A stretch of DNA of 64,000 bases from Actinomycetota bacterium (GCA_041658565.1 JBAZZY010000001.1:87405-151404); one strand, 5' to 3'; positions 1 to 54,082 are shown, counted from the stretch's first letter. The notes: generated from the letters alone by a model not told the origin. Program-made: numbers and translations.

Positions 1-1957
<1,957 letters not shown>

Positions 1958-2029
1958 CGCTCACGCTCGCTATAGGGTGCTCAATGTGCCCGTAGATTGA
2001 CAAACGTGGGGCGCAATCCCCAAATAGAG

Positions 2030-2147
2030 TTTCGGTGGCCATGGCGGAGGGGTCACACCCGGTCCCATCCCGAACCCGGAAGTTAAGTCCTCCAGCGCCG
2101 ATGGTACTGCGCGGGCAGCTGCGTGGGAGAGTAGGACGCCGCCGAGA
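2030..2147 (+). rRNA. rrf: 5S ribosomal RNA
   Basis: ~118 nt with 5S hallmarks (CCCATCCCGAACCCGGAAGTTAAG...GCCGATGGTACTG...GGGAGAGTAGGACGCCGCCGAG), directly after the 23S 3' end. Confidence 0.9.
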
Positions 2148-2151
2148 CACT

Positions 2152-2177
2152 TCGAGGCCGGTCCAATTGGACCGGCC
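2152..2177 (+). terminator. rRNA operon terminator stem-loop (AGGCCGGTCCAATTGGACCGGCCT)
   Basis: Perfect 10-bp GC-rich inverted repeat with a 4-nt loop immediately after 5S; no strong T-run, as is common in high-GC genomes. Also the likely target structure of the downstream class-C group II intron. Confidence 0.6.
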
Positions 2178-2709
2178 TCGGCCTATGTACGCCGGGCATG
2201 TGCAATCGCTTGGAGGTGAAAGTCCTCTGGACGCGGAGGTGGTCCGTAGTCCGAGCCAAAGGCAACTGCGTCACCGCGAGGTGGGGTGGGGAGGAAGCCG
2301 GAGGCGAAACCCTGCACCGAGGAACACGAACCGCATATGAGGCGGGACGACCTGGATGAGCTGGCATGGCACAGCGAAGTCCGTACCCACCGAAGGGTCG
2401 TTCCGTAAATGCGGCGGGCGTAGGGGGAAAGTGGTTGTGCTTATCCCGGGAGATCTGCCGGAGTGTCAGAGCACAAGCATGGCTGAGGTCGAGCCATCGC
2501 CTGACCGCTGTCGCAGCGATGCGCCGGCGGACCCGGCAGAAGTCAGCAGAGGCCATAGTAGTGACGCTGTTCGTCGCGAAGGGCCGAACGTAAAGCGAAA
2601 GGACGATCATGTCCGGCTCGTGCAGACGCGCAAAGTGCAGCCAACCCGTCGTGGACGGGCCTGGGACGGTGCCGACGTGGTGAATCCACGGACCTCCGTT
2701 CCAGAGCAG

Positions 2710-4056
2710 ATGCGTTTGCCGGTGCCCGGCATCGAAGATCCTCACCCCACCCGTTCTCTGTGGGACGACGTTTTCGCCGTCTCGAACATCGAACGGGCGA
2801 TCCGACGTGTTGAGCGGAACAAGGGCGCTCCCGGTATCGATGGGGTGTCCACCCAAGAGCTGCGATCGCACTGGCGCACGCACTGGCCCGCGATCAATGC
2901 TGCGCTCGACGCTGGCGCCTACCAACCCGCACCCGTTCGCAGGGTGGAGATTCCAAAGCCCGATGGCGGCGTGCGAGTCCTGGGGGTGCCCACGGTGCAA
3001 GACCGTGTGATCCAGCAGGCTATCTTGCAGGTGCTCACTCCGATCTTCGACCCGACGTTTTCCGAGCAGAGTTTCGGGTTCCGTCCGAACCGCAGCGCGC
3101 ATCAAGCCGTGAATGCGGCCCGGCGTTTCGTTGAGGAGGGCTCGGAGGTGGTCGTGGAGATTGATCTGGATCGTTTCTTTGACCGGATCAACCACGACAT
3201 GCTCATGGCGAGGGTTGCGAGAAAGGTAAAAGACAAGCAAGTGCGCAAGCTGATCCGCTCTTTGCTGAACGCGGGCGTGATGGACGCTGGCGTGTGTGTG
3301 CGGACCGAGGAAGGAACCCCGCAAGGGGGGCCACTTTCGCCGCTGCTCGCCAATGTCATGCTCGACGATTTGGATCAGGAGTTGGAAAAGCGAGGGCATC
3401 GCTTCGTCCGTTACGCCGATGACTTAACGATCTACGTCGAAAGCGAGCGGGCGGGGCAGCGCGTCTTCGAGAGTATCTGCGGATTCATCGAGAAGCGATT
3501 GAAGCTCCGCGTGAACCGTTCAAAATCCAAAGTGGTTTCCGCTACGCGAGCGCATCTGCTCGGCTTTGGACTCTTGAAACGGAAAGGGACGGTTGGTGTC
3601 CGGATCGATTCGTTGGCAAAACGCAAGGCCAAGGATCGCATCCGGCGTCTGACATCCCGCAGCAGGGGTGTGTCGATGGAGCGCCGCATCCGCGAGGTCA
3701 ACGCCTACATTCGCGGCTGGGTGAACTACTTCGGCCTGTCCGACACGCCGAGCACTTTCGACGAACTCGATCAGTGGCTTCGCCGCAGGCTCCGGCAGGC
3801 TCGTTGGAAGCAGTGGAAGCGGATACGCACCAAGGTTCGGATGCTTCGATCTTTGGGGATTCCCAAGCAGAAGGCCTATGAGTGGGCCAACACGCGAAAG
3901 GGCTCCTGGCGCACCGCAGGTTCTGCCCCACTTCAGCGAGCGATGCCCAACGCCTATTGGTCAGCCCTCGGCCTTGTTGGCTTCACCGAGGCTTACCGCC
4001 GTGTCAGGGAGTCTTTGCGAACCGCCGGATGCGGGCCCGCATGTCCGGTGGTGTGA
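2710..4056 (+). CDS. ltrA-like: Group II intron reverse transcriptase/maturase
   Basis: RT domains 0–7 including FRPNRSAHQA, the YADD catalytic motif (FVRYADDLTIYVES), thumb/X and C-terminal maturase region. ATG at 2710 lies 16 aa upstream of the conserved LWDDV...RNKGAPGIDG block. The six-frame ORF extends to 2356, but that N-terminus is probably intron RNA domains I–III. Confidence 0.92.
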   Translation: MRLPVPGIEDPHPTRSLWDDVFAVSNIERAIRRVERNKGAPGIDGVSTQELRSHWRTHWPAINAALDAGAYQPAPVRRVEIPKPDGGVRVLGVPTVQDRVIQQAILQVLTPIFDPTFSEQSFGFRPNRSAHQAVNAARRFVEEGSEVVVEIDLDRFFDRINHDMLMARVARKVKDKQVRKLIRSLLNAGVMDAGVCVRTEEGTPQGGPLSPLLANVMLDDLDQELEKRGHRFVRYADDLTIYVESERAGQRVFESICGFIEKRLKLRVNRSKSKVVSATRAHLLGFGLLKRKGTVGVRIDSLAKRKAKDRIRRLTSRSRGVSMERRIREVNAYIRGWVNYFGLSDTPSTFDELDQWLRRRLRQARWKQWKRIRTKVRMLRSLGIPKQKAYEWANTRKGSWRTAGSAPLQRAMPNAYWSALGLVGFTEAYRRVRESLRTAGCGPACPVV

Positions 4057-45528: not shown

Positions 45529-45825
45529 TCAGGCGCAGTCCCGGCAGAGCATCTTCTTCTTGTCTACGAGCTGGCTCTGGTGTTTCAGTAGGTAGCAGGA
45601 GCGACACGTGAACTCGTTCGGTTGAGGGGGAATCACTTTCTCAACCAAACTCTCGGACGTTTCGTCGCCGCGCCCGAGATCAAGGAGGACTTCGTCCTCG
45701 TCTTCTTCTTCCGCGCCCTCGGCGCGCTTGGCGAGCTCCTCAAAGCTCGTTTCAACTGCTAGATCTTCGTCTTCGTCTGCCACGCTATTCGCCACCTCCG
45801 GTTTGCAGCCCGCTGTATACACCAC
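45529..45825 (-). CDS. Small acidic protein with C-terminal 4-Cys zinc ribbon (DUF4193-like)
   Basis: Highly acidic N-terminus and FTCRSCYLLKH...MLCRDCA. Confidence 0.55.
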   Translation of the reverse strand: MVYTAGCKPEVANSVADEDEDLAVETSFEELAKRAEGAEEEDEDEVLLDLGRGDETSESLVEKVIPPQPNEFTCRSCYLLKHQSQLVDKKKMLCRDCA

Positions 45826-45879
45826 CCCGCACTCGGCTGCAACGGGTCGGTGTCACATTCGGGTGTTATCGTGCGCGCC

Positions 45880-46854
45880 ATGCCGGAACTTAGAGCCGAC
45901 CCGTGGGATCCCGGGTACGGCATGGGCTTTGAGGCCGACGTCGACGAGGCCTCCGCCGCGGTCGTTGACGAGAAGGTCGAGACCGCCGATTGGTCTCGAC
46001 CTATCAATGGCACGGCACCTGAAGGGCATTCGGTGACTTTCATCGACGGCGTACTGCGGGTGGACCTGCGCCTGATCGCCGAGGAGGGCATTCGGCGCGC
46101 GCCCGGGCTCTTCGGATCCTTCGCCGTGGGTTGCGTCCACTGCGACGACACGGCTTCGTTCGGAGAGCATGTGGTCGGGCGCGTCCTGGTTCTGGGCGGT
46201 GGGATGAAGTCGGAGGGGGCGAATGTGGAGATCGGCCGCGCCCGCCTGGACTTCGTCGGGGTGAGTGTCCCGGGCTCCGACCCCGCGTCCCCGTGGGCCA
46301 GGCTTCGCCAGGTTATGCGGGACGCTGAGGCTGCCCTCGCGCGCCGGTTGGCGGGGCACCCCGACAGGCTCATTCTTGCCGATGGGCCCCTGATGTTTGC
46401 CGATCCTGCAGGCGTGCCGATCGTGGGCGTCGTCAAGCGAATCGAGCGCGTCTACCTCTCGCCGGAGAGCGATCCCCTCATCGGACGACTGGGCCCTGGG
46501 GAGCGCACGCCGTTGTTCCTGATCGGAGGCGCGGGATCCGGATTGCAGCGCTACTCCTGGTACGCGCGCCCCGTACCAAGACGGTCACACTGGCACTCGC
46601 ATGCCGGCATCGTTCGGTGCGAGGTCGAAGCGAGTGCCGGAGCTTCTGCGGCGGCGGCGGTGGCCGATCGCGTCGCGGGACTGCTCCCTCGCTTCGCCGG
46701 GCGGCCGTCGGACCCGCGCGCGCCACAGAATCTCGCCCCGATCGGAGCATTGGAAGACCGGCTGCGCCGGCGTATGGGAAACGAGTTGAAGATCCGCCGC
46801 GCACTCACGACGCGCCTGGTTCGAGGAGATCGGGAATGGACGAACACCAACTGA
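45880..46854 (+). CDS. NurA-like nuclease (putative), first gene of HerA/SbcCD operon
   Basis: ~325 aa; N-terminal hhIDG motif (VTFIDGVLRVD) resembling NurA motif I. Translationally coupled: its stop lies 19 nt inside the HerA-like gene. An alternative GTG start is at 45850. Confidence 0.5.
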   Translation: MPELRADPWDPGYGMGFEADVDEASAAVVDEKVETADWSRPINGTAPEGHSVTFIDGVLRVDLRLIAEEGIRRAPGLFGSFAVGCVHCDDTASFGEHVVGRVLVLGGGMKSEGANVEIGRARLDFVGVSVPGSDPASPWARLRQVMRDAEAALARRLAGHPDRLILADGPLMFADPAGVPIVGVVKRIERVYLSPESDPLIGRLGPGERTPLFLIGGAGSGLQRYSWYARPVPRRSHWHSHAGIVRCEVEASAGASAAAAVADRVAGLLPRFAGRPSDPRAPQNLAPIGALEDRLRRRMGNELKIRRALTTRLVRGDREWTNTN

Positions 46855-48524
46855 GCGAGCCTGTCGGCTACGTGCTCGGGCGAGAGGATGCCACTCCCCT
46901 GTCGTTCTGGGTCGCCGTTTCTCCGGGCTCCTATCTGCAGCTCGACGACCCGGTGATCGTGGACACCGAAGTCCCCGGGCGCGGTCCGCTGCGGATATCG
47001 GGCATCGTCCAGGAAGTGCGCGCGCGCCACGAGGGCGTCGCGTTTGATTCGGACGTCTTCGCAATCAACGAGGGCGTGCTTCCGGCCGAAATCGCGGTCG
47101 CCGCCAACGTGATCGCGACCCGGTTCGAGCCGGAGGTCTTCATCCCTCCGATGCCGGGATTGCAGGCATCGCGCGCGCGCGGAAAGGACCGCGACGAGGT
47201 GCTCTCGTTCGACAAGATGGAGCGCCGACTGCCGGCGGGTCTGTCGCGGGACGGTGAGCCTGTGTACATGGACCTCGACTTCCTCGACGGAACCCGCGGC
47301 GCTCACGTGAACATCTCAGGGATCTCCGGGATCGCAACCAAGACGACGTACGCACTGTTCTTGTTGTACGGGCTCTTTCATTCCAACGTGCTCGGGGGTC
47401 ACGCGGCGAACACGAAGGCGATCGTGTTCAACGTCAAGGGCGAAGATCTGCTCTGGCTCGACCGCCCGAATGCCCGACTTCCGCAAGAAGCCCATGCCGA
47501 ATACGAGCGCCTCGGCTTGCCGGTCGGGCCGTTCGAGAGCGTGGGGTTGTGGGCTCCGCCGCGCGTGGGTGCCGGCGACGAGATCATGCCTCACGTCGAG
47601 GGCCGCGCTGACGGGATCCGAGCGTATTTCTGGACGGTGCGGGAGTTCGTCCGTGAGCGTTTCCTGCGCTTCATGTTTGCCGAGGCCGAGGACGATCGAT
47701 CGCAGATCGCCGACCTAGTGGCGCGCGTCGAGCACCACCTGGATCTCGAGTGCGAAGACGACCCCGCCAACTCCGCGATCTTGCGCTTCTCGGGAGAGCC
47801 GATCGACACCTTCGATCGTCTGTGTGCCTTGATCCAGGACACCCTTGACGATGAGAGTTCGCACTGGCGCGGACGTATCGCCGACGGAACGATCGCAGCG
47901 TTTCAGAGGCGTCTCGACGCCGGTCGGCGTCGTATCGGGCATCTCATCCGCGGTCGCGAGGCGGCCGATGCGGCTGGGCACACGATCGACTGGGATTCCA
48001 GTCAAGTCACCGTCGTCGACATCCACAACCTCCACGACCGGGCGAAACGCTTTGTCACCGGCGTCGTCGTGCGCCGGTTGTTCGAACACAAGGAGCGGAT
48101 GGGCACGCGCCTGCCGCTGACCTTCCTCGTTCTGGACGAGTTGAATCGTTACGCCCCGCGCGACGGATGGAGCCCAATCAAGGAGGTCCTGCTCGACGTC
48201 GCGGAGCGAGGCCGTTCGCTTGGAATCGTTCTCGTAGGCGCGCAGCAGACCGCAAGCGAAGTCGAGCGCCGGGTCGTCTCCAACTCGGCGTTTCGCGTCG
48301 TCGGGCGACTGGACACGGCTGAGGCTCAGCGCGGCGAATACGGGTTTCTGCCCGCCGTCACGCGCGCGCGCGCCGGGATCCTCAAGCCCGGTTCTATGAT
48401 CTTGCAGCAGCCACAGATCCCCATTCCCATTCAACTGCGCTTTCCCTTCCCCAGCTGGGCAACGCGCGCCGACGAAGCGATGGCGCCCGACGGGGACCCC
48501 TTCGCGCGCTTCGACGAGGACTAG
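46836..48524 (+). CDS. HerA-like FtsK/HerA-superfamily ATPase (N-terminal HAS-barrel, central ATPase core) with non-canonical P-loop
   Basis: N-terminal barrel-like region (VAVSPGSYLQLDDPVIVDT...LRISGIVQEV). P-loop-like VNISGISGIATKTT. Walker B hhhhDE (LTFLVLDELNRY). Arg-finger-rich C-terminus. 562 aa. Confidence 0.6.
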   Translation: MDEHQLSEPVGYVLGREDATPLSFWVAVSPGSYLQLDDPVIVDTEVPGRGPLRISGIVQEVRARHEGVAFDSDVFAINEGVLPAEIAVAANVIATRFEPEVFIPPMPGLQASRARGKDRDEVLSFDKMERRLPAGLSRDGEPVYMDLDFLDGTRGAHVNISGISGIATKTTYALFLLYGLFHSNVLGGHAANTKAIVFNVKGEDLLWLDRPNARLPQEAHAEYERLGLPVGPFESVGLWAPPRVGAGDEIMPHVEGRADGIRAYFWTVREFVRERFLRFMFAEAEDDRSQIADLVARVEHHLDLECEDDPANSAILRFSGEPIDTFDRLCALIQDTLDDESSHWRGRIADGTIAAFQRRLDAGRRRIGHLIRGREAADAAGHTIDWDSSQVTVVDIHNLHDRAKRFVTGVVVRRLFEHKERMGTRLPLTFLVLDELNRYAPRDGWSPIKEVLLDVAERGRSLGIVLVGAQQTASEVERRVVSNSAFRVVGRLDTAEAQRGEYGFLPAVTRARAGILKPGSMILQQPQIPIPIQLRFPFPSWATRADEAMAPDGDPFARFDED

Positions 48525-48526
48525 CG

Positions 48527-49687
48527 GTGCGATTCCTGCACACCGCCGACTGGCACGTCGGCAAAGCGATTCGCGGGCGCTCACGGCTGGAGGAGTTCGC
48601 CGACGCCCTCGCCGAAATCGCCGGAATCGCGCGCGACGAGCGGGTCGATGCCGTATTGCTGGCCGGAGATATCTACGACCAGCGTCTTCCGGTCCCCGGC
48701 GCTGATCATCTCGTTTTTGAGTTCTTCGTCCGCATGCACGAGGCGGGCGTTCCGGTTGTCGCGATCCCGGGCAACCACGACTCCGCCGACCGCTTGGGTG
48801 CGCTCGCGCAACTGCTGCACCCGATGGGCATCACCGTCGTGCACAAGCCACTCAGGCCGGATGCGGGCGGGATCGTGCGCATTCAGGGGCGGGACGGAAC
48901 CGAAGCCGAGATCGCGTGCGTGCCCTTCGTTCCCGAGCGCCGCTACGCGGAACCCGCGGCCTTGTTTGGCTCGGCCGGCGAGTGGCACCAATCGTACGCG
49001 GACGGGATGGGGCACTTGCTCGGCGCTTACGCGGCGGCGATGAGTCCGGATCGGGTGCGCATCGTGCTGGCACACGTGTTTGCGGCGGGCACCCGCATGG
49101 GCGGCGGCGAGCGCGAAGTGACCATAGGACTCAACTACGCGATCGCGCCGGCCCGTCTGCCCGGCACGGTGAACTACCTTGCGCTCGGTCACGTTCACCG
49201 CGCACAGGATGTGCCGGGGGCGCCTGCGCACGCGCGCTATCCGGGCTCGATCCTTCAACTCGACTTCGGCGATGTAGGACAGGCCAAGTCCGTCACCATC
49301 GTGGACGCGAAGCCGGGAACTCCGGCCCAGGTGCGCGAGGTCGAGCTGTCGGCCGGACGCCGTCTGATCGACATTCGTGGCACGTTTGACGAGGTCGCGG
49401 CGCGCGCGCCGGAGGTAGCCGGCGCCTACGTGCGCGCGTTCGTGGCGACCGACGGCCCGGTTCCCGGGATGGCCGAACGTGTTCGAGAGGTGATTCCCGG
49501 GGCCGTCGATGTGCGCCTGGCGTACGAGCGCGTCGAGGGCGAGGCCGCACACGCCGGCCTGTCGACGCTCAATCCTCACGAGCAGTTCAACGCCTACTAC
49601 CGCCAAGCGCACGGAAGCGATCCGCATCCTGCGGTCGCCGAGGCTTTCGACGAGATCCTGGCCGAGATGGCGGGTGAGTCGCTGTGA
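48527..49687 (+). CDS. sbcD: DNA repair exonuclease SbcD / Mre11 family
   Basis: Calcineurin-like phosphoesterase motifs: LHTADWHVG, LLAGDIYD, GNHD, LGHVH. GTG start 3 nt after the HerA-like stop. Confidence 0.9.
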   Translation: MRFLHTADWHVGKAIRGRSRLEEFADALAEIAGIARDERVDAVLLAGDIYDQRLPVPGADHLVFEFFVRMHEAGVPVVAIPGNHDSADRLGALAQLLHPMGITVVHKPLRPDAGGIVRIQGRDGTEAEIACVPFVPERRYAEPAALFGSAGEWHQSYADGMGHLLGAYAAAMSPDRVRIVLAHVFAAGTRMGGGEREVTIGLNYAIAPARLPGTVNYLALGHVHRAQDVPGAPAHARYPGSILQLDFGDVGQAKSVTIVDAKPGTPAQVREVELSAGRRLIDIRGTFDEVAARAPEVAGAYVRAFVATDGPVPGMAERVREVIPGAVDVRLAYERVEGEAAHAGLSTLNPHEQFNAYYRQAHGSDPHPAVAEAFDEILAEMAGESL

Positions 49688-52245
49688 GACCAGTGCTCCT
49701 GGATCTCGCCGGGTTCACCTCGTTCCGCGAACGGCAAGAACTCAACTTCGAGGGTCTCGACCTCTTCGCCATCTCGGGCCCAACCGGATCGGGCAAGTCC
49801 TCGATCCTGGATGCGATCACCTACGCCTTGTACGGACGAGTCGAGCGCGTCGGCCGCGAGGTCGGACAACTGGTGAGCCAGGGTCGCGCGAAGATGTCGG
49901 TCGGCTTCGTCTTCAGCGTCGGGGACGATCGCTATCGCATCACGCGGGCAACGCCGGCTTCCGGAGGGAGCACCAAGGTGCTCCTGGAACAACTGCGCGA
50001 CGGCGAGTGGGTCCAGGCCGGAGACGGCGCCGATCGCGTCGGCCTGGTAAACGCGCGCATCCAGGATCTCGTCGGGCTCGACTACGACGGCTTCACCCGC
50101 TCGGTCTTGCTCCCGCAAGGCAAGTTCGCCGAGTTCTTGGTCGGTGAAGCATCCAAGCGCCGCGAGATCCTCACAGAGTTGCTCGGACTGCGGCTGTTCC
50201 GGGACATGGCACAGCGCGCCGGCACGATTGCGCGTGACGCCGACCAGCAGGCGACCGCACATTCGTCGCTGATCGAGCGCGAGTACGAGGGCGTCGATGA
50301 CGAGGCCTTGACTGCGGCATGCGAGCGTGCCGACGCAGCGCGTGCGCGCGAGGAGTCGATCGAGAAGGCGTCCGAGCGGGTTGCCGACATTGCGGATCGA
50401 TGGGAGCACGAGCGCCGCGCGCACGAGAAGGTGCGTGTTTGCGTGGGCGAGCTGGATCGTGTGGCCGAACAGTTGGACACCTCGGCAGTGGTGATCTCGA
50501 GAGCCTCAAGTCGTTTGGACGAGGCAGCGCCCGTGCTCGGCAGACTGGCGCGCGCCCACCAGGCCGCGGGCGAGGCCGCCGAAGCCGCGTCGGCCGCTCG
50601 CGCGCGCGCGGAAGAGGAGTCGGGCGGAATGCGCGCGCTGGCCGCCGCGCGCGGTGCGGCTGAGACGCTATCGGCATCGCGCGCGCGAATGCAGGGGGCG
50701 CAACGAGCGCGCGCCACAGCCGTCGATCGCATTCCCGCACTTGATCGCGCCGTGGCAGCAGCCGCACAGGAAGTCGCTCGCGCAACAGACGCGCGCGCGG
50801 TTGCGGAAACCGCGATCGAAGAGGCGCACGCGGTCTTGGATGCGGCGCGACGAGCCGATCTTGCTGCGGCCCTGTGCGACGGCCTGCATCCGGGCGACGC
50901 GTGTCCGGTCTGCGGCGGAACGCTCGAGCACCTCCCCTCCCCCGAGGCGGCACTTACGCTTGCAGGCGCGCAGGCTGCCGACAAGAGTGCCGCTGCCAAG
51001 CTGAAGTCGGCCGAGGGCGGGGTCGTCGCCGCCGAGCGCGCGCTGCGCGACGCCGAGCGCAATCGCGCCGATCTAGACGCCGAGATCGCTCAAATCGACC
51101 GGGAGATGATGTCCCTGGCGGACGTCAATGCCACGGCATCCAGCGCGCTCGCGCCGATCCTCGGTGAGCCCCTGCCCGAAGATCCCGTCGGTGCGGTTGA
51201 AGAACGCATCGAAATCCTGGACGCGGCTTCAGCCTTGGAAACCCAGGCCAAAGAGACGCTGGCAACCGCCGCCGGGCGGCTGACGGACGCGGATCGGCGC
51301 CACGCAGCCATTGAGGCCGAGGTCCTCGCGGAGCGCGCGGCCATGCTCGCGCGCGATCCCGGGGCGGTACTGGCGCGCGCGGGCGAACTCGGCGCCGCGG
51401 TCGCAGACCCGGAACCCGCGCCCATGGGCGCTGCGGATCTTGCAATCTGGGCACGCGACGTGGTCGCCCGAGCGCGCATTGTTCGCGAAGGGCTGGGCGA
51501 TGTCGCCGCGCAGGCAGAACGAAGTCGCGCCGCTTTGTGCGCTGAAGCTGAGGCCGCCGCGGCGGGTCTGGTGCAGGCGACCGGTTCGGTTGAAGGCATA
51601 GCGCGCGCGCTCGCCGCCGAAGTTCGCAAGGCGGCCGGCGACGCTGCGACGGCACAAGCCCATGCCGACTCGGTGCGGCGGCGGTTGGCGACCCGCAACG
51701 AGATGGCGCAGGATGTCGAACGCCTCGGCGCGCGCGCGCAGGCGTTCCAAGCGCTCGCGACCGAATTGCGCGCCGACCGCTTGATCGCCTTCCTGCAAAA
51801 CGAAGCGCTGCAAGTGCTGTGCGGCGCCGGGACGGCGCACTTGGCCGCCCTCTCGGATGGACGCTATCGCCTGGTAAGCGAAGACGACGAGTTCCACGTC
51901 GTGGACGTGTGGAACGGAGAGGACCGCCGCAGCGTGAAGACGCTTTCGGGTGGCGAGACGTTCCTCGCGTCACTGGCTCTCGCGCTGGCATTAAGCGAAC
52001 ATGTGCAAGCACTGAGCATGTTGCAAACCGCACGCCTGGACAGCCTGTTCCTTGACGAAGGCTTCGGGACGCTCGACTCCGAATCCCTCGAGCAAGTGGT
52101 CCAAGCCATTGAGCAGATCGGCGGGACCGGCCGCACCGTAGGCGTTATCACGCACATCAGCGACCTAGCCGAGCGGCTCCCCAGTCGCATCATCATCGAG
52201 AAGTCGCCTCAGGGAAGTCGCGTGATTACCCAGCAGGACCAGTGA
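49684..52245 (+). CDS. sbcC: DNA repair ATPase SbcC / Rad50 family (coiled-coil with zinc hook)
   Basis: Walker A GPTGSGKSS; long Ala/Arg-rich coiled coil; central CPVCGG zinc hook; signature LSGGETFLASLALALAL; Walker B/D-loop LFLDEGFGTLD. GTG overlaps the sbcD stop (GTGA). Confidence 0.9.
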   Translation: MRPVLLDLAGFTSFRERQELNFEGLDLFAISGPTGSGKSSILDAITYALYGRVERVGREVGQLVSQGRAKMSVGFVFSVGDDRYRITRATPASGGSTKVLLEQLRDGEWVQAGDGADRVGLVNARIQDLVGLDYDGFTRSVLLPQGKFAEFLVGEASKRREILTELLGLRLFRDMAQRAGTIARDADQQATAHSSLIEREYEGVDDEALTAACERADAARAREESIEKASERVADIADRWEHERRAHEKVRVCVGELDRVAEQLDTSAVVISRASSRLDEAAPVLGRLARAHQAAGEAAEAASAARARAEEESGGMRALAAARGAAETLSASRARMQGAQRARATAVDRIPALDRAVAAAAQEVARATDARAVAETAIEEAHAVLDAARRADLAAALCDGLHPGDACPVCGGTLEHLPSPEAALTLAGAQAADKSAAAKLKSAEGGVVAAERALRDAERNRADLDAEIAQIDREMMSLADVNATASSALAPILGEPLPEDPVGAVEERIEILDAASALETQAKETLATAAGRLTDADRRHAAIEAEVLAERAAMLARDPGAVLARAGELGAAVADPEPAPMGAADLAIWARDVVARARIVREGLGDVAAQAERSRAALCAEAEAAAAGLVQATGSVEGIARALAAEVRKAAGDAATAQAHADSVRRRLATRNEMAQDVERLGARAQAFQALATELRADRLIAFLQNEALQVLCGAGTAHLAALSDGRYRLVSEDDEFHVVDVWNGEDRRSVKTLSGGETFLASLALALALSEHVQALSMLQTARLDSLFLDEGFGTLDSESLEQVVQAIEQIGGTGRTVGVITHISDLAERLPSRIIIEKSPQGSRVITQQDQ

Positions 52246-52257
52246 CGCGTCCCGGGC

Positions 52258-53397
52258 TTAGCGCGCCAGCGCGCGCCCGATGACCAGCCGCTGGATCTGG
52301 TTCGTCCCCTCGACGATCTGGAGCACCTTCGCTTCGCGCATGAAGCGCTCGGCCGGGAATTCCTCCACGTAACCGTACCCGCCGTGCACCTGCACGGCGT
52401 CCGTCGTAATTCGCATTGCGGTATCGCTCGCGAAGAGCTTCGCCATCGCCGCCTGCTTCGCGAAAGACATGCCCGCGTCGCGACGTCGTGCAGCTTCGAA
52501 CGTCAAGCTGCGTGAGGCTTCCAGTGCCGTCGCCATGTCCGCGAGCATGAACGAGATCCCCTCGAACTCGATCACAGGGCGTCCGAACTGTCGCCGTTCC
52601 TTAGCAAAGGCCACGGCAGCCGCCAGCGCCGCGCGCGACAATCCGTTCGATGCGGCCGCGATGCCGAGTCGCCCGCCGTCGAGCGCCGCCATCGCAATGC
52701 GAAAGCCCTCGTTCTCCACACCGATGAGGTTCGCGACCGGAACCCGGGCATCATCGAACAGCATCTGTCCGGTCGGCGACGAGCGCAGTCCCATCTTGCG
52801 TTCGAGCTTTGCCCGGGAGACTCCCGGAGTGTCGGCGGGAACGAACAGCGCCGAGATTCCGCCGGGGCCGGCGTCGCCCGTGCGCACGAAGACAACGTAG
52901 TAATCGCTCTCCCCGCCGTGAGTGACCCAAGCCTTCGTTCCGGATACGACGTAGGTATCGCCGTCGCGGCGCGCGCGCGTCGTGAGTGCCGCTGCGTCGG
53001 AGCCGCTCTCCGGCTCGGATAGGCAATAAGAACCGAGCCACTCCCCGGCGCACGCCGGCGGCATCCACGCGGCGCGCTGCTCATCGGTGCCGAAGACCGC
53101 CGTGGGGAAGATCGTCAGCGTCTGGACGCTTGCGCCAACACCGACGGACAGCAGCGCCGAGGAGAGTTCCTCGATCACCATCAAGTTCACTTCGTACGGC
53201 TGCGCGCCGCCGCCGTACTCCTCCGGGTAGGGAAGCCCCAGAAGCCCGGCCGCACCGAGCGCCTTGAAGGCGGCGCGTGGAAACGTCGCAGTCCTTTCCC
53301 ACTCGCCGGCGTGCGGGGCGATCTCGCGCGCGCAAATCCGGCGTACTACGTCCAGCAGCGCGCGCCGCTCCTCGGTCAATCCCACTGGTTCGCTCAC
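52258..53397 (-). CDS. Acyl-CoA dehydrogenase
   Basis: ACAD N-terminal, middle and C-terminal domain signatures (...YCLSEPESGSDAAAL..., ...QVHGGYGYVEEFPAERFMREAKVLQIVEGTNQIQR). GTG 53397 preceded by AGGAGG. The upstream six-frame extension is low-complexity non-coding. Confidence 0.88.
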   Translation of the reverse strand: MSEPVGLTEERRALLDVVRRICAREIAPHAGEWERTATFPRAAFKALGAAGLLGLPYPEEYGGGAQPYEVNLMVIEELSSALLSVGVGASVQTLTIFPTAVFGTDEQRAAWMPPACAGEWLGSYCLSEPESGSDAAALTTRARRDGDTYVVSGTKAWVTHGGESDYYVVFVRTGDAGPGGISALFVPADTPGVSRAKLERKMGLRSSPTGQMLFDDARVPVANLIGVENEGFRIAMAALDGGRLGIAAASNGLSRAALAAAVAFAKERRQFGRPVIEFEGISFMLADMATALEASRSLTFEAARRRDAGMSFAKQAAMAKLFASDTAMRITTDAVQVHGGYGYVEEFPAERFMREAKVLQIVEGTNQIQRLVIGRALAR

Positions 53398-53554
53398 TAA
53401 GCCTCCTCGTTCCTCCGGCGGCCGGCCGCCGGGCGTCGCGCCGATCGATGCGCGATGATGTGGAGCATATCGGGCAGAGGCCGCGAACCGTCGGCCTCTG
53501 CGGGCATGAGAGAAGGAACTGTGCACCCCGAAGGCGAATGGCATCGTTGAACTG

Positions 53555-54082
53555 ATGATGAGATACCGCCTCGCTCGCACGGCCGCCCTTGCGGGGGCTG
53601 CGGTTTTGGCGTGCGTCCTGATCGGGGCGTTCCCATCGATTGCGCGCGCGGACTGCACCTTTGACGGCACTCCGCTGGGTGGCCGGCTTTGCCCCTCCCC
53701 AAGCCCGTCGCCCAGCCCTTCTCCGACGCCCACGCATTCGGCGACACCGACTCCCTCACCGTCGCCGACGCGCGCACCGTCTCCGGATCCGGCGCCGCAG
53801 CCGACGTTGACCCCGTTTGCCTTCCCGACCGGCTTCCCCTCGTCTTGGCCGGGATTCCCCGGCGCGTCCGCTGCGCAGCCATACCAGCCGCCTCCGGCGT
53901 ATCCATCGCCGTACGTCCCGGGCCGCACGACATCGCAGGGGACCACGCGCGGGTTGGCGATCAGCCCGGGAGAGGAATCTCCGGCCTTTCCGACGAGATC
54001 GACGGTACTGCTCATCGTCGCGGCTTTAGGCGCTCTGTGGCTGCACCGCGGGCGAGTCCGGCGCTGGATGGTGGGTATCTAG
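53555..54082 (+). CDS. Secreted Pro/Ser/Thr-rich protein with C-terminal TM anchor, hypothetical
   Basis: Signal peptide (…AFPSIARA-DC), (SP)n/(TP)n tracts, and a C-terminal hydrophobic helix plus RGRVRR tail. Confidence 0.55.
   Translation: MMRYRLARTAALAGAAVLACVLIGAFPSIARADCTFDGTPLGGRLCPSPSPSPSPSPTPTHSATPTPSPSPTRAPSPDPAPQPTLTPFAFPTGFPSSWPGFPGASAAQPYQPPPAYPSPYVPGRTTSQGTTRGLAISPGEESPAFPTRSTVLLIVAALGALWLHRGRVRRWMVGI

Follow-up and report, generated by a model that had tools for sequence, protein, structure and literature searches.

A bacterial nurA–herA–sbcD–sbcC operon, probably vertically inherited and probably for DNA double-strand end processing, in an Actinomycetota chromosome

Organization of the operon

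The DNA analysed here (the window) is a 64,000-nt stretch of the genome of an Actinomycetota bacterium (GCA_041658565.1 JBAZZY010000001.1:87405-151404). It contains four co-directional, tightly coupled plus-strand genes, nurA, herA, sbcD and sbcC, which extend over positions 45850/45880–52245 (Table 1). The nurA and herA genes overlap by 19 nt, herA and sbcD are separated by a 2-nt gap, and sbcD and sbcC share a GTGA overlap. All three junctions suggest translational coupling, and from them we infer that the genes are co-transcribed. An earlier note on this DNA had described such a four-gene operon, and its ORFs, coordinates, junctions and quoted motifs are all confirmed in the sequence.

Table 1 Features of the nurA–herA–sbcD–sbcC locus (window coordinates)
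Feature	Position	Strand	Description
DUF4193 gene	45529–45783	minus	Gene call; divergent neighbour of nurA
Divergent intergenic region	45784–45879		Between the DUF4193 gene and nurA; presumed operon promoter region
nurA	45850–46854	plus	Predicted NurA 5'-3' nuclease, bacterial type; 334 aa from GTG 45850, 324 aa from ATG 45880
herA	46836–48524	plus	Predicted hexameric FtsK/HerA-superfamily DNA translocase, bacterial NurA-associated clade; 562 aa
sbcD	48527–49687	plus	Bacterial-type nuclease subunit of the Mre11 family; 386 aa
sbcC	49684–52245	plus	Bacterial-type ABC ATPase of the Rad50 family, carrying a coiled coil and a CPVC zinc hook; 853 aa

The more likely start of nurA is the ATG at 45880, which fits the N termini of orthologues better than the GTG at 45850; the orthologues and the native M1 of the Deinococcus radiodurans protein (drNurA) align to M11 of the window NurA. 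The ATG of herA (46836) is preceded by a GAGGAG ribosome-binding site, and the mechanically defined ORF begins at GTG 46617. A promoter scan returned 0 promoters and no sigma-70 consensus, a negative that is uninformative for a high-GC actinobacterium, and in a terminator scan terminator-like sites were not enriched within the operon, their number being at or below chance level.

The GC and GC3 contents of the four genes are those of the flanking genes. The neighbours of the operon (gcv, ppm1, lnt, ACAD, DAGK, helY and tatCA) are housekeeping genes, and the cluster is located within conserved actinobacterial backbone synteny. We judge that nurA–herA–sbcD–sbcC is probably a chromosomal, vertically inherited bacterial operon for the processing of DNA double-strand ends. 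It is an ordinary representative of an already known kind, built from bacterial (Deinococcus-type) versions of its parts.

Identity of the four proteins

The first gene, which had been proposed to encode NurA on the basis of an hhIDG motif, does so. Its product scores 38.9 bits against Pfam PF09376 (cut-off 21) and is similar to drNurA (PDB 7f6d_H; E=3.8e-23) and to Thermotoga maritima TM1739 (1ZUP; E=2.9e-5); in the single-sequence PDB search two bacterial NurA structures matched and no archaeal ones did at E<=10. The motif reads FIDG (residues 64–67). Residues D66, E160, D178 and W19 are conserved in 97–98 of 98 aligned sequences, where D66 corresponds to the catalytic D53 of drNurA and W19 to drNurA W8 (PMC4663267, PMC9960219). 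The putative pin region aligns with that of drNurA with a 3-residue length difference. Many NurA partners of this HerA clade escape Pfam.

The second protein has no Pfam match, including to the HerA/DUF87 family (PF01935) that had been expected at 46836–48524, and its NCBIfam matches are all below threshold. A reading of the protein as something other than HerA, which these blanks might invite, is overturned by a match to the solved structure of D. radiodurans HerA (drHerA; PDB 7f6d_B) with E=4.6e-148 and 497 bits in phmmer (query residues 7–549 to chain residues 12–602) and 45.9% identity over ~540 residues in blastp. This full-length homology bears out the earlier assignment to a HerA-type ATPase with a HAS-barrel-like N terminus. 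The alignment covers all three domains of drHerA, whose layout (PMC9960219) is the source of our domain assignment: the window HerA is predicted to carry a HAS-barrel at its N terminus, a RecA-like ATPase core and, as an insertion, a helix-bundle domain. No archaeal HerA structure was found at E<=10 in a single-sequence PDB search with the window HerA. A profile search of the PDB recovered drHerA at 3e-207 and archaeal HerA (4D2I) at E=3.2e-6, the latter over the C-terminal ATPase core only. The exact protein is present in NCBI under the label 'ATP-binding protein [Actinomycetota bacterium]', and the wider lesson for annotation is that this HerA clade is missed by Pfam and carries a label that says merely 'ATP-binding protein'.

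The Walker A motif of HerA, GISGIATKT (residues 162–170), had been considered so unusual that the protein might be a regulatory scaffold. The motif is in fact a family trait: G165, A167 and K169, together with D434 and E435 of the Walker B motif (VLDE, residues 432–435), are invariant in 23 diverse homologues, and G162 and T170 vary little or not at all among the 23, giving a family Walker A of GxxGxAxK[TS]. By alignment, K169/T170 correspond to drHerA K175/T176, D434/E435 to D487/E488, R442 to R495 and R499 to R552. In drHerA, ADP and Mg2+ are bound by K175 and T176, and mutation of K175 impairs ATPase activity; K175, D487/E488, R495 and R552 have all been shown to matter (PMC9960219). Because the motif is conserved throughout the bacterial family and its lysine and threonine are functional in drHerA, we rejected the degenerate P-loop idea, and a scaffold role for the window HerA is unlikely.

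Pfam, NCBIfam and motifs agree with the earlier assignment of the third and fourth genes to SbcD and SbcC. SbcD contains PF00149 (Metallophos) and PF12320 (SbcD_C), scores 193 bits against NCBIfam sbcd_Bac, 178 bits against TIGR00619 (cut-off 77.65) and 74 bits against Mre11_Pyroc, and carries the phosphoesterase motifs DxH, GD, GNHD and GHVH at residues 5–10, 47–51, 82–85 and 221–224. SbcC contains PF13476 (AAA_23), PF02463 (SMC_N) and PF13558 (SbcC_Walker_B) and scores 280 bits against TIGR00618 (sbcc) versus <=78 bits against archaeal Rad50 models. The score is lower than the full-length cut-off of TIGR00618 (478.5), and the length of the protein, 853 aa against a model of 1043 positions, implies a shorter coiled coil. 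Its head is a split ABC ATPase, with Walker A (GPTGSGKSS, 32–40), signature (LSGGE, 754–758), Walker B (LFLDE, 788–792) and H-loop (822–824), that is parted by a coiled coil bearing the CxxC zinc hook (CPVCGG, 407–412).

Linkage of HerA–NurA to SbcCD

The earlier note held bacterial HerA/NurA pairs to be rare and, where reported, not fused with sbcCD. The HerA family is instead large, comprising >7,500 clusters at 90% identity and, at E<=1e-30, 486 clusters at 50% identity from several phyla. Among related loci with room downstream, sbcD lies downstream of herA in 120 of 131 (92%), immediately after it in 107 and further away in 13 more, and in 91 of 141 related loci nurA immediately precedes herA. 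An unfused arrangement was already contradicted in 2017 by Oceanithermus profundus (PMC5448004). The novelty claimed for the arrangement is likewise refuted by its being common in close relatives, and conserved synteny in well over 100 related loci means that it is not due to chance.

Two gene orders occur among the related loci, in several phyla. One of them, herA–sbcD–sbcC–nurA, is that of a large bacterial clade. A sister subclade carries unrelated genes between herA and sbcD, showing that strict co-transcription is not essential. The four genes form a stable core over divergent lineages. Linked loci span Actinomycetota, Gemmatimonadota and metagenome-assembled genomes (MAGs) labelled Chloroflexia or Dormibacterota, and include a cultured Nitriliruptoraceae isolate and a Gemmatimonadota MAG; the genome-contig scan, made with a single-protein query, reached only 70–76% relatives, and the wider diversity comes from a metagenome scan that carries no taxonomy.

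The broader proposition, which we hold to be evenly balanced, is that this NurA–HerA clade is coupled as a rule to SbcCD, in several phyla and in two clade-specific orders, one of which mirrors the crenarchaeal operon. We take herA–mre11–rad50–nurA, as listed for Sulfolobus, to be the actual gene order there. If the proposition is true, SbcCD and HerA–NurA together form a four-component end-resection machine that is widespread in bacteria, in addition to RecBCD, AddAB and AdnAB, and Deinococcus and Thermus, the only experimentally studied bacterial systems, with unlinked genes and puzzling phenotypes, are derived exceptions. These two systems, without sbcCD linkage, do look atypical. The connection between SbcCD and HerA in bacteria was still described as 'to be uncovered' in the literature of 2015, and in the literature searched we found no systematic description of bacterial herA–sbcCD linkage, although Iyer et al. 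2004 may contain one. Because linkage is the rule in the HerA family and absent from current model organisms, carriers available in culture, the Nitriliruptoraceae isolate among them, may be better models for asking if SbcCD and HerA–NurA cooperate in bacteria. The window locus itself is of little consequence, being a conserved repair operon that has characterized bacterial homologues and a layout published for another bacterium.

Proposed model for DNA end processing

The DNA-end-processing role that had been proposed for the operon is likely, given the gene identities and the operon structure. In the mechanism that we propose, SbcCD, a zinc-hook-tethered ABC ATPase–nuclease of the Mre11/Rad50 type, would recognize ends that are blocked, hairpinned or bound by protein, and open them. 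The HerA hexamer, which retains Lys169/Thr170 of Walker A and Asp434/Glu435 of Walker B, would next use ATP to thread the duplex through its central channel and push it into a NurA dimer docked on the HAS-barrel face. There the N-terminal pin region of NurA would part the two strands, of which mainly the 5' one would be degraded in the RNase-H-like site (Asp66, Glu160, Asp178), so that RecA would receive a 3' tail. The enzymatic activities, the 6:2 complex and the cooperation of SbcCD with HerA–NurA are predicted by analogy with the D. radiodurans and archaeal literature; after drNurA–HerA (PMC9960219), HerA6–NurA2 would be a complex in which the ATPase and the nuclease stimulate each other. 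The in vivo role may be modulatory instead of being the main resection pathway.

An improbable alternative is that NurA–HerA mainly restrains or regulates other pathways (RecJ/RecFOR, AdnAB), or handles forks or chromosomes, with the sbcCD linkage reflecting shared substrates. Iyer et al. did propose that HerA acts in DNA pumping or segregation, as cited in PMC2288612 and PMC2588523. However, drNurA–HerA carries out ATP-dependent, translocation-coupled resection of the 5' strand in vitro (PMC9960219), the HerA-binding C-terminal domain of RecJ is described as specific to Deinococcus–Thermus (PMC4663267), and the near-universal genomic coupling to SbcCD in the HerA family is best fitted by a sequential end-processing pathway.

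A defence function and an archaeal origin as unlikely alternatives

A defence role, raised earlier as an alternative to repair, is not supported. The module would then be an anti-phage or anti-foreign-DNA system organized on a HerA-like ATPase, as in Sir2–HerA or DUF4297–HerA, with NurA and SbcCD as nuclease effectors, and Blackwood et al. have speculated that HerA–NurA could destroy foreign DNA (PMC3326311). The PADLOC HerA and mad8 models do match the C-terminal ATPase segment of the window HerA, but the HerA matches cover ~110 residues at <=28 bits, compared with 497 bits over the full length for drHerA; the matches of the mad3 and LmuB models to SbcC reflect shared ABC/SMC folds. In profile-to-PDB comparison the anti-phage HerAs 8xau (6e-9), 8yho (1e-8) and 9c1m (9e-8) score about as well as archaeal HerA (3e-6). 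The operon, however, has housekeeping neighbours and no adjacent Sir2, DUF4297 or other defence effector, and its genes are a stable core in divergent lineages rather than a variable island. On this genomic context and the partial, weak PADLOC matches we discarded the defence reading, which we consider very unlikely, in favour of end processing.

Least probable of all, and in our view scarcely credible, is that this bacterium or a recent ancestor gained a complete archaeal herA–mre11–rad50–nurA module by horizontal transfer: the four-gene combination is a hallmark of thermophilic archaea (PMC2288612, PMC4351679), the herA–sbcD–sbcC–nurA order of the bacterial clade matches the listing of the Sulfolobus operon genes (PMC4351679) and the Thermus literature terms HerA 'of archaeal origin' (PMC5448004), but the bit scores of SbcD and SbcC on bacterial models are two to four times those on archaeal Mre11/Rad50 models, archaeal HerA and NurA structures are absent from the single-sequence matches (4D2I appears by profile only, over the ATPase core), the best identity to any archaeal HerA is only 27% (Blesa et al., PMC5448004), and the GC and GC3 values and backbone synteny described above speak for residence. 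We rejected recent transfer from archaea on these model scores, structural distances, base composition and synteny, and the GC/codon comparison with flanking genes suggested by the earlier note goes against acquisition. Of the 'archaeal-type module' that it saw, the presence of all four genes in one operon stands; the archaeal type does not, as HerA and NurA are Deinococcus-type and the bacterial models outscore the archaeal ones for both SbcD (193 versus 74 bits) and SbcC (280 versus 78 bits). Had genes passed between the domains, this would have been long ago and without the SbcCD genes.

Comparison with known systems

The anti-phage HerA systems (Sir2–HerA and DUF4297–HerA; 8xau, 8yho, 9c1m, 8ziq) share with the window HerA an FtsK/HerA-superfamily ATPase core, with weak similarity over about 110–200 C-terminal residues. 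The window HerA differs in that it does not match these systems over its full length and in that its partners are NurA and SbcCD, with neither Sir2 nor DUF4297 among them.

The archaeal herA–mre11–rad50–nurA operons of Sulfolobus and Pyrococcus likewise combine a ring translocase, an RNase-H-like nuclease, an Mre11-type nuclease and a Rad50-type ATPase, and they and the window operon are likely to share a logic of short-range end opening followed by long-range resection. The sequences are, however, very distant, and the Mre11 and Rad50 components of the window are bacterial SbcD and SbcC. Archaeal HerA has a canonical P-loop, whereas the window HerA has a deviant Walker A motif and no Pfam match. 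Archaeal NurA lacks the pin-like motif of bacterial NurA, and its dimer and its mode of HerA contact also differ (PMC9960219).

The D. radiodurans NurA–HerA pair (DR_0836/DR_0837; PDB 7F6D, 7WRW, 7WRX) belongs to the same protein families as the window pair. The two HerA proteins have in common the three-domain layout, a GISG[IV]ATKT Walker A motif, the Walker B DE and the translocation arginines, and the two NurA proteins share their catalytic Asp, an N-terminal Trp and a putative pin region. In both genomes nurA is the upstream gene of the pair. The window HerA, at 562 aa, lacks several insertions of drHerA (~600 aa). In D. radiodurans nurA–herA is treated as a two-gene operon (PMC9960219), and one paper says explicitly that no physical or functional link between SbcCD and HerA is known in bacteria (PMC4663267), whereas in the window sbcD and sbcC follow directly and appear translationally coupled.

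Oceanithermus profundus, going by its published description, has sbcD and sbcC downstream of nurA–hepA(herA) (Blesa et al. 2017, PMC5448004). It belongs to the Thermales (Deinococcota) rather than to the Actinomycetota, and its cluster was already read by Blesa et al. as an archaeal-like gene architecture for double-strand break repair.

Four linked genes encode NurA, HerA, SbcD and SbcC

Four consecutive plus-strand open reading frames make up the operon nurA–herA–sbcD–sbcC, with exactly the coordinates proposed in an earlier note made from the sequence alone. The nurA stop codon lies 19 nt within herA, inspection of the sequence reveals a GAGGAG 5′ of the herA ATG, herA and sbcD are separated by 2 nt, and sbcD and sbcC share a GTGA overlap. 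These junctions reproduce those in the earlier note, which had spotted the operon and named its genes correctly, and every motif quoted there is present in the four proteins. Terminator-like sites are not in excess across the operon region (3 found against 4.5 expected).

Features of the operon and its immediate neighbours (window positions)
Feature	Coordinates	Strand	Description
DUF4193 gene	45529-45783	minus	small
nurA (protein 1)	45850-46854	+	334 aa ORF
herA (protein 2)	46836-48524	+	562 aa counted from ATG
sbcD (protein 3)	48527-49687	+	386 aa ORF
sbcC (protein 4)	49684-52245	+	853 aa ORF
acyl-CoA dehydrogenase call	52258-54015	minus	585 aa
overlapping ORF	53555-54082	+	175 aa

Protein 1 is NurA by Pfam, as had been predicted (PF09376, 38.9 bits; cut-off 21). 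A PDB sequence search matches it to Deinococcus radiodurans NurA (drNurA; 7f6d_H, E=3.8e-23) and Thermotoga maritima TM1739 (1ZUP, 2.9e-5), and to none of the archaeal NurA structures. Protein 3 contains Metallophos and SbcD_C domains, and protein 4 contains AAA_23, SMC_N and SbcC_Walker_B domains. For protein 2 the Pfam search returned zero matches, where PF01935 had been expected, and NCBIfam matches were sub-threshold only. Its assignment as HerA nevertheless stands, through a PDB match over residues 7-549 to 7f6d_B ‘HerA’ (E=4.6e-148; 45.9% identity by blastp), the D. radiodurans protein (drHerA) of a NurA–HerA structural and DNA end resection study (PMC9960219).

M11 of the window NurA aligns with native drNurA M1 and with orthologue N termini, so ATG 45880 is more likely to be the translation start than GTG 45850. 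The DUF4193 gene is divergent from nurA across an intergenic region of ~70-100 nt, and the arrangement lnt–DUF4193–nurA recurs in a subclade of relatives (survey loci L001, L019, L026, L028, L037, L038, L042, L045, L052 and L054).

The active sites of HerA and NurA are intact

The unusual P-loop of the window HerA had led the earlier note to ask whether the protein works as a translocase or as a regulatory scaffold. The same deviant Walker A motif occurs in drHerA (GISGVATKT), in which K175 pairs with the ADP β-phosphate, T176 coordinates Mg2+, and mutation of K175 or D487/E488 impairs both ATPase activity and resection (PMC9960219). Using a reconstructed drHerA chain whose numbering recovers the published K175 and D487/E488, we align window K169 with K175, D434/E435 with D487/E488, and R442 and R499 with the translocation arginines R495 and R552. 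Among 23 diverse HerA family members (30-53% identity to the window protein), G165, A167, K169, D434 and E435 do not vary at all, and G162 and T170 are almost fully conserved. Because the P-loop is shared with drHerA, is functional there and is conserved in these family members, it marks out a clade of active ATPases and is no sign of degeneration.

In NurA, alignment shows D66 (the Asp of FIDG), E160, D178, R70, R111 and K196 to be conserved in 97-98 of 98 sequences. D66 corresponds to drNurA D53, and the D53A variant of drNurA is catalytically dead (PMC4663267). W19 is likewise conserved (97-98 of 98) and corresponds to drNurA W8, which adjoins a pin-like motif specific to bacterial NurA.

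The four-gene arrangement is the norm in its HerA family

A search for the HerA family in a large protein collection yielded >7,500 clusters at 90% identity and, at 50% identity, 1,824 clusters with E<=1e-3, of which 486 have E<=1e-30. Named members come from Deinococcus, Desulfurellaceae, Euzebya, Nitriliruptor, Egibacteraceae, Gemmatimonadota and candidate division WS2, at odds with the supposed rarity of bacterial HerA/NurA pairs.

We placed the four genes by tblastn in 61 genome loci, with HerA identities of 70-76% (41% in one case), and in 80 metagenome loci, with identities of 52-76%. Among the 131 loci with room downstream, sbcD lies <=400 nt 3′ of herA in 107, further downstream past inserted genes in 13, and is absent from 11; the arrangement is therefore common in relatives, contrary to its presumed novelty. 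nurA is directly 5′ of herA in 91 survey loci and 3′ of sbcC in 19. In a neighbour-joining HerA tree of 135 sequences, every major clade includes loci with an adjacent sbcD, and drHerA branches deepest. The nurA-downstream order is restricted to one clade of 42 leaves, which has zero nurA-upstream loci; this order, herA–sbcD–sbcC–nurA, matches the published listing of the Sulfolobus operon (herA, mre11, rad50, nurA).

Loci with the nurA-downstream order include L087, L089, L090, L092, L096, L100, L103, L104, L107, L117, L119, L121, L127, L129, L136, L139-L141, L143 and L144, and NurA of this clade is often missed by PF09376. Gene calls verify the cluster in a Gemmatimonadota MAG; the 337-aa ORF 3′ of sbcC there has no Pfam match but shares 36% identity with the window NurA (E=3e-38). 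They also give the order herA, three inserted genes, sbcD, sbcC, nurA in Nitriliruptoraceae bacterium ZYF776 (L143, GCA_009720505.1), which is a cultured isolate. ZYF776 has a 580-aa ORF without a Pfam match directly 3′ of herA, and ~4-6 kb upstream of herA an NHEJ set (370-3211: LigD primase-polymerase, Ku and ATP-dependent DNA ligase), placing two double-strand-break repair systems in one neighbourhood.

Inserts between herA and sbcD (L001, L006, L019, L026, L028, L038, L045, L052, L054, L066, L095 and L131) span 1.2-5 kb and carry unrelated genes (acetyltransferase-like, amidohydrolase-like and aminotransferase-like ORFs, some of them in the opposite orientation), indicating that the nurA–herA and sbcDC halves can be transcriptionally uncoupled. 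The window itself has no insert, and most insert-bearing close relatives share its lnt/DUF4193 upstream synteny. HerA proteins 71-82% identical to that of the window occur in MAGs labelled ‘uncultured Chloroflexia’ (L027, L029, L030, L039, L040, L051 and L055), ‘Dormibacterota’ (L061) and ‘Candidatus Velamenicoccus archaeovorus’ (L058), that is, as other phyla. This points either to errors in the binning or labelling of these MAGs or to the whole operon having crossed between phyla fairly recently.

The operon is bacterial in type and sits in conserved backbone

The earlier note called the module archaeal-type, whereas its components score as bacterial. SbcD scores 193 and 178 bits with the sbcd_Bac and TIGR00619 models but 74 with the archaeal Mre11 model that fits it best; for SbcC, the sbcc model gives 280 bits and Rad50 models give <=78. 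The HerA family profile matches drHerA at 3e-207 and archaeal Sulfolobus HerA (4D2I) at 3.2e-6, the latter over the C-terminal ATPase core only and no closer than anti-phage HerAs such as 8xau (6e-9). The GC (0.65-0.68) and GC3 (0.77-0.80) of the four genes equal those of neighbouring genes and give no transfer signal. Conserved actinobacterial backbone surrounds the locus, with gcvH, FHA, MerR, gcvPA/PB, ppm1, lnt and DUF4193 at one end and acyl-CoA dehydrogenase, DAG kinase, helY and tatC/tatA at the opposite end. On these model scores, the distance to 4D2I, composition and synteny we reject a recent acquisition from archaea; there is no sign that the genes were gained recently, came from an archaeon or form part of a defence island.

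In the downstream flank, the first ~200 residues of the acyl-CoA dehydrogenase call are Gly/Asp-rich and of low complexity, lack the ACAD domain and are overlapped by a plus-strand ORF. The protein encoded by this ORF starts with a signal-peptide-like stretch, is PSPSPSPTPT-rich in the middle and has a hydrophobic C-terminal segment ending in a basic tail. Either this ORF or the dehydrogenase call is probably wrong, and the true dehydrogenase start is likely to be further downstream than called.

A candidate resection machine

By homology with drNurA–HerA (PMC9960219), the HerA hexamer would draw in duplex DNA from an end and feed it into a NurA dimer docked on the HAS-barrel face of the hexamer. 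A pin element would part the strands at NurA, where endonucleolytic cutting of the 5′ strand as the DNA is translocated would produce a 3′ tail. SbcCD would act first, at blocked or hairpin ends; we infer these activities and the cooperation of SbcCD with HerA–NurA. A modulatory physiological role, in place of main resection, is a live alternative. An anti-phage role, also raised in the earlier note, is unlikely, because PADLOC matches are partial and weak, no effector partner gene is present and the neighbourhood is housekeeping.

The four-gene layout is already published for another bacterium, Oceanithermus profundus, in which sbcD and sbcC are encoded 3′ of hepA (herA) (Blesa et al. 2017, PMC5448004). 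That report and the linkage in 120 of 131 loci overturn the view that bacterial herA–nurA is never joined to sbcCD. Its authors read the arrangement as an archaeal-like double-strand-break repair architecture, with the closest archaeal HerA only 27% identical (PMC5448004). The literature that we searched yielded no survey of how widespread this linkage is; Iyer et al. 2004 is the likeliest place for one. We give even chances to the proposal that SbcCD and HerA–NurA form a general four-component bacterial resection machine, which would make unusual cases of the Deinococcus and Thermus models.
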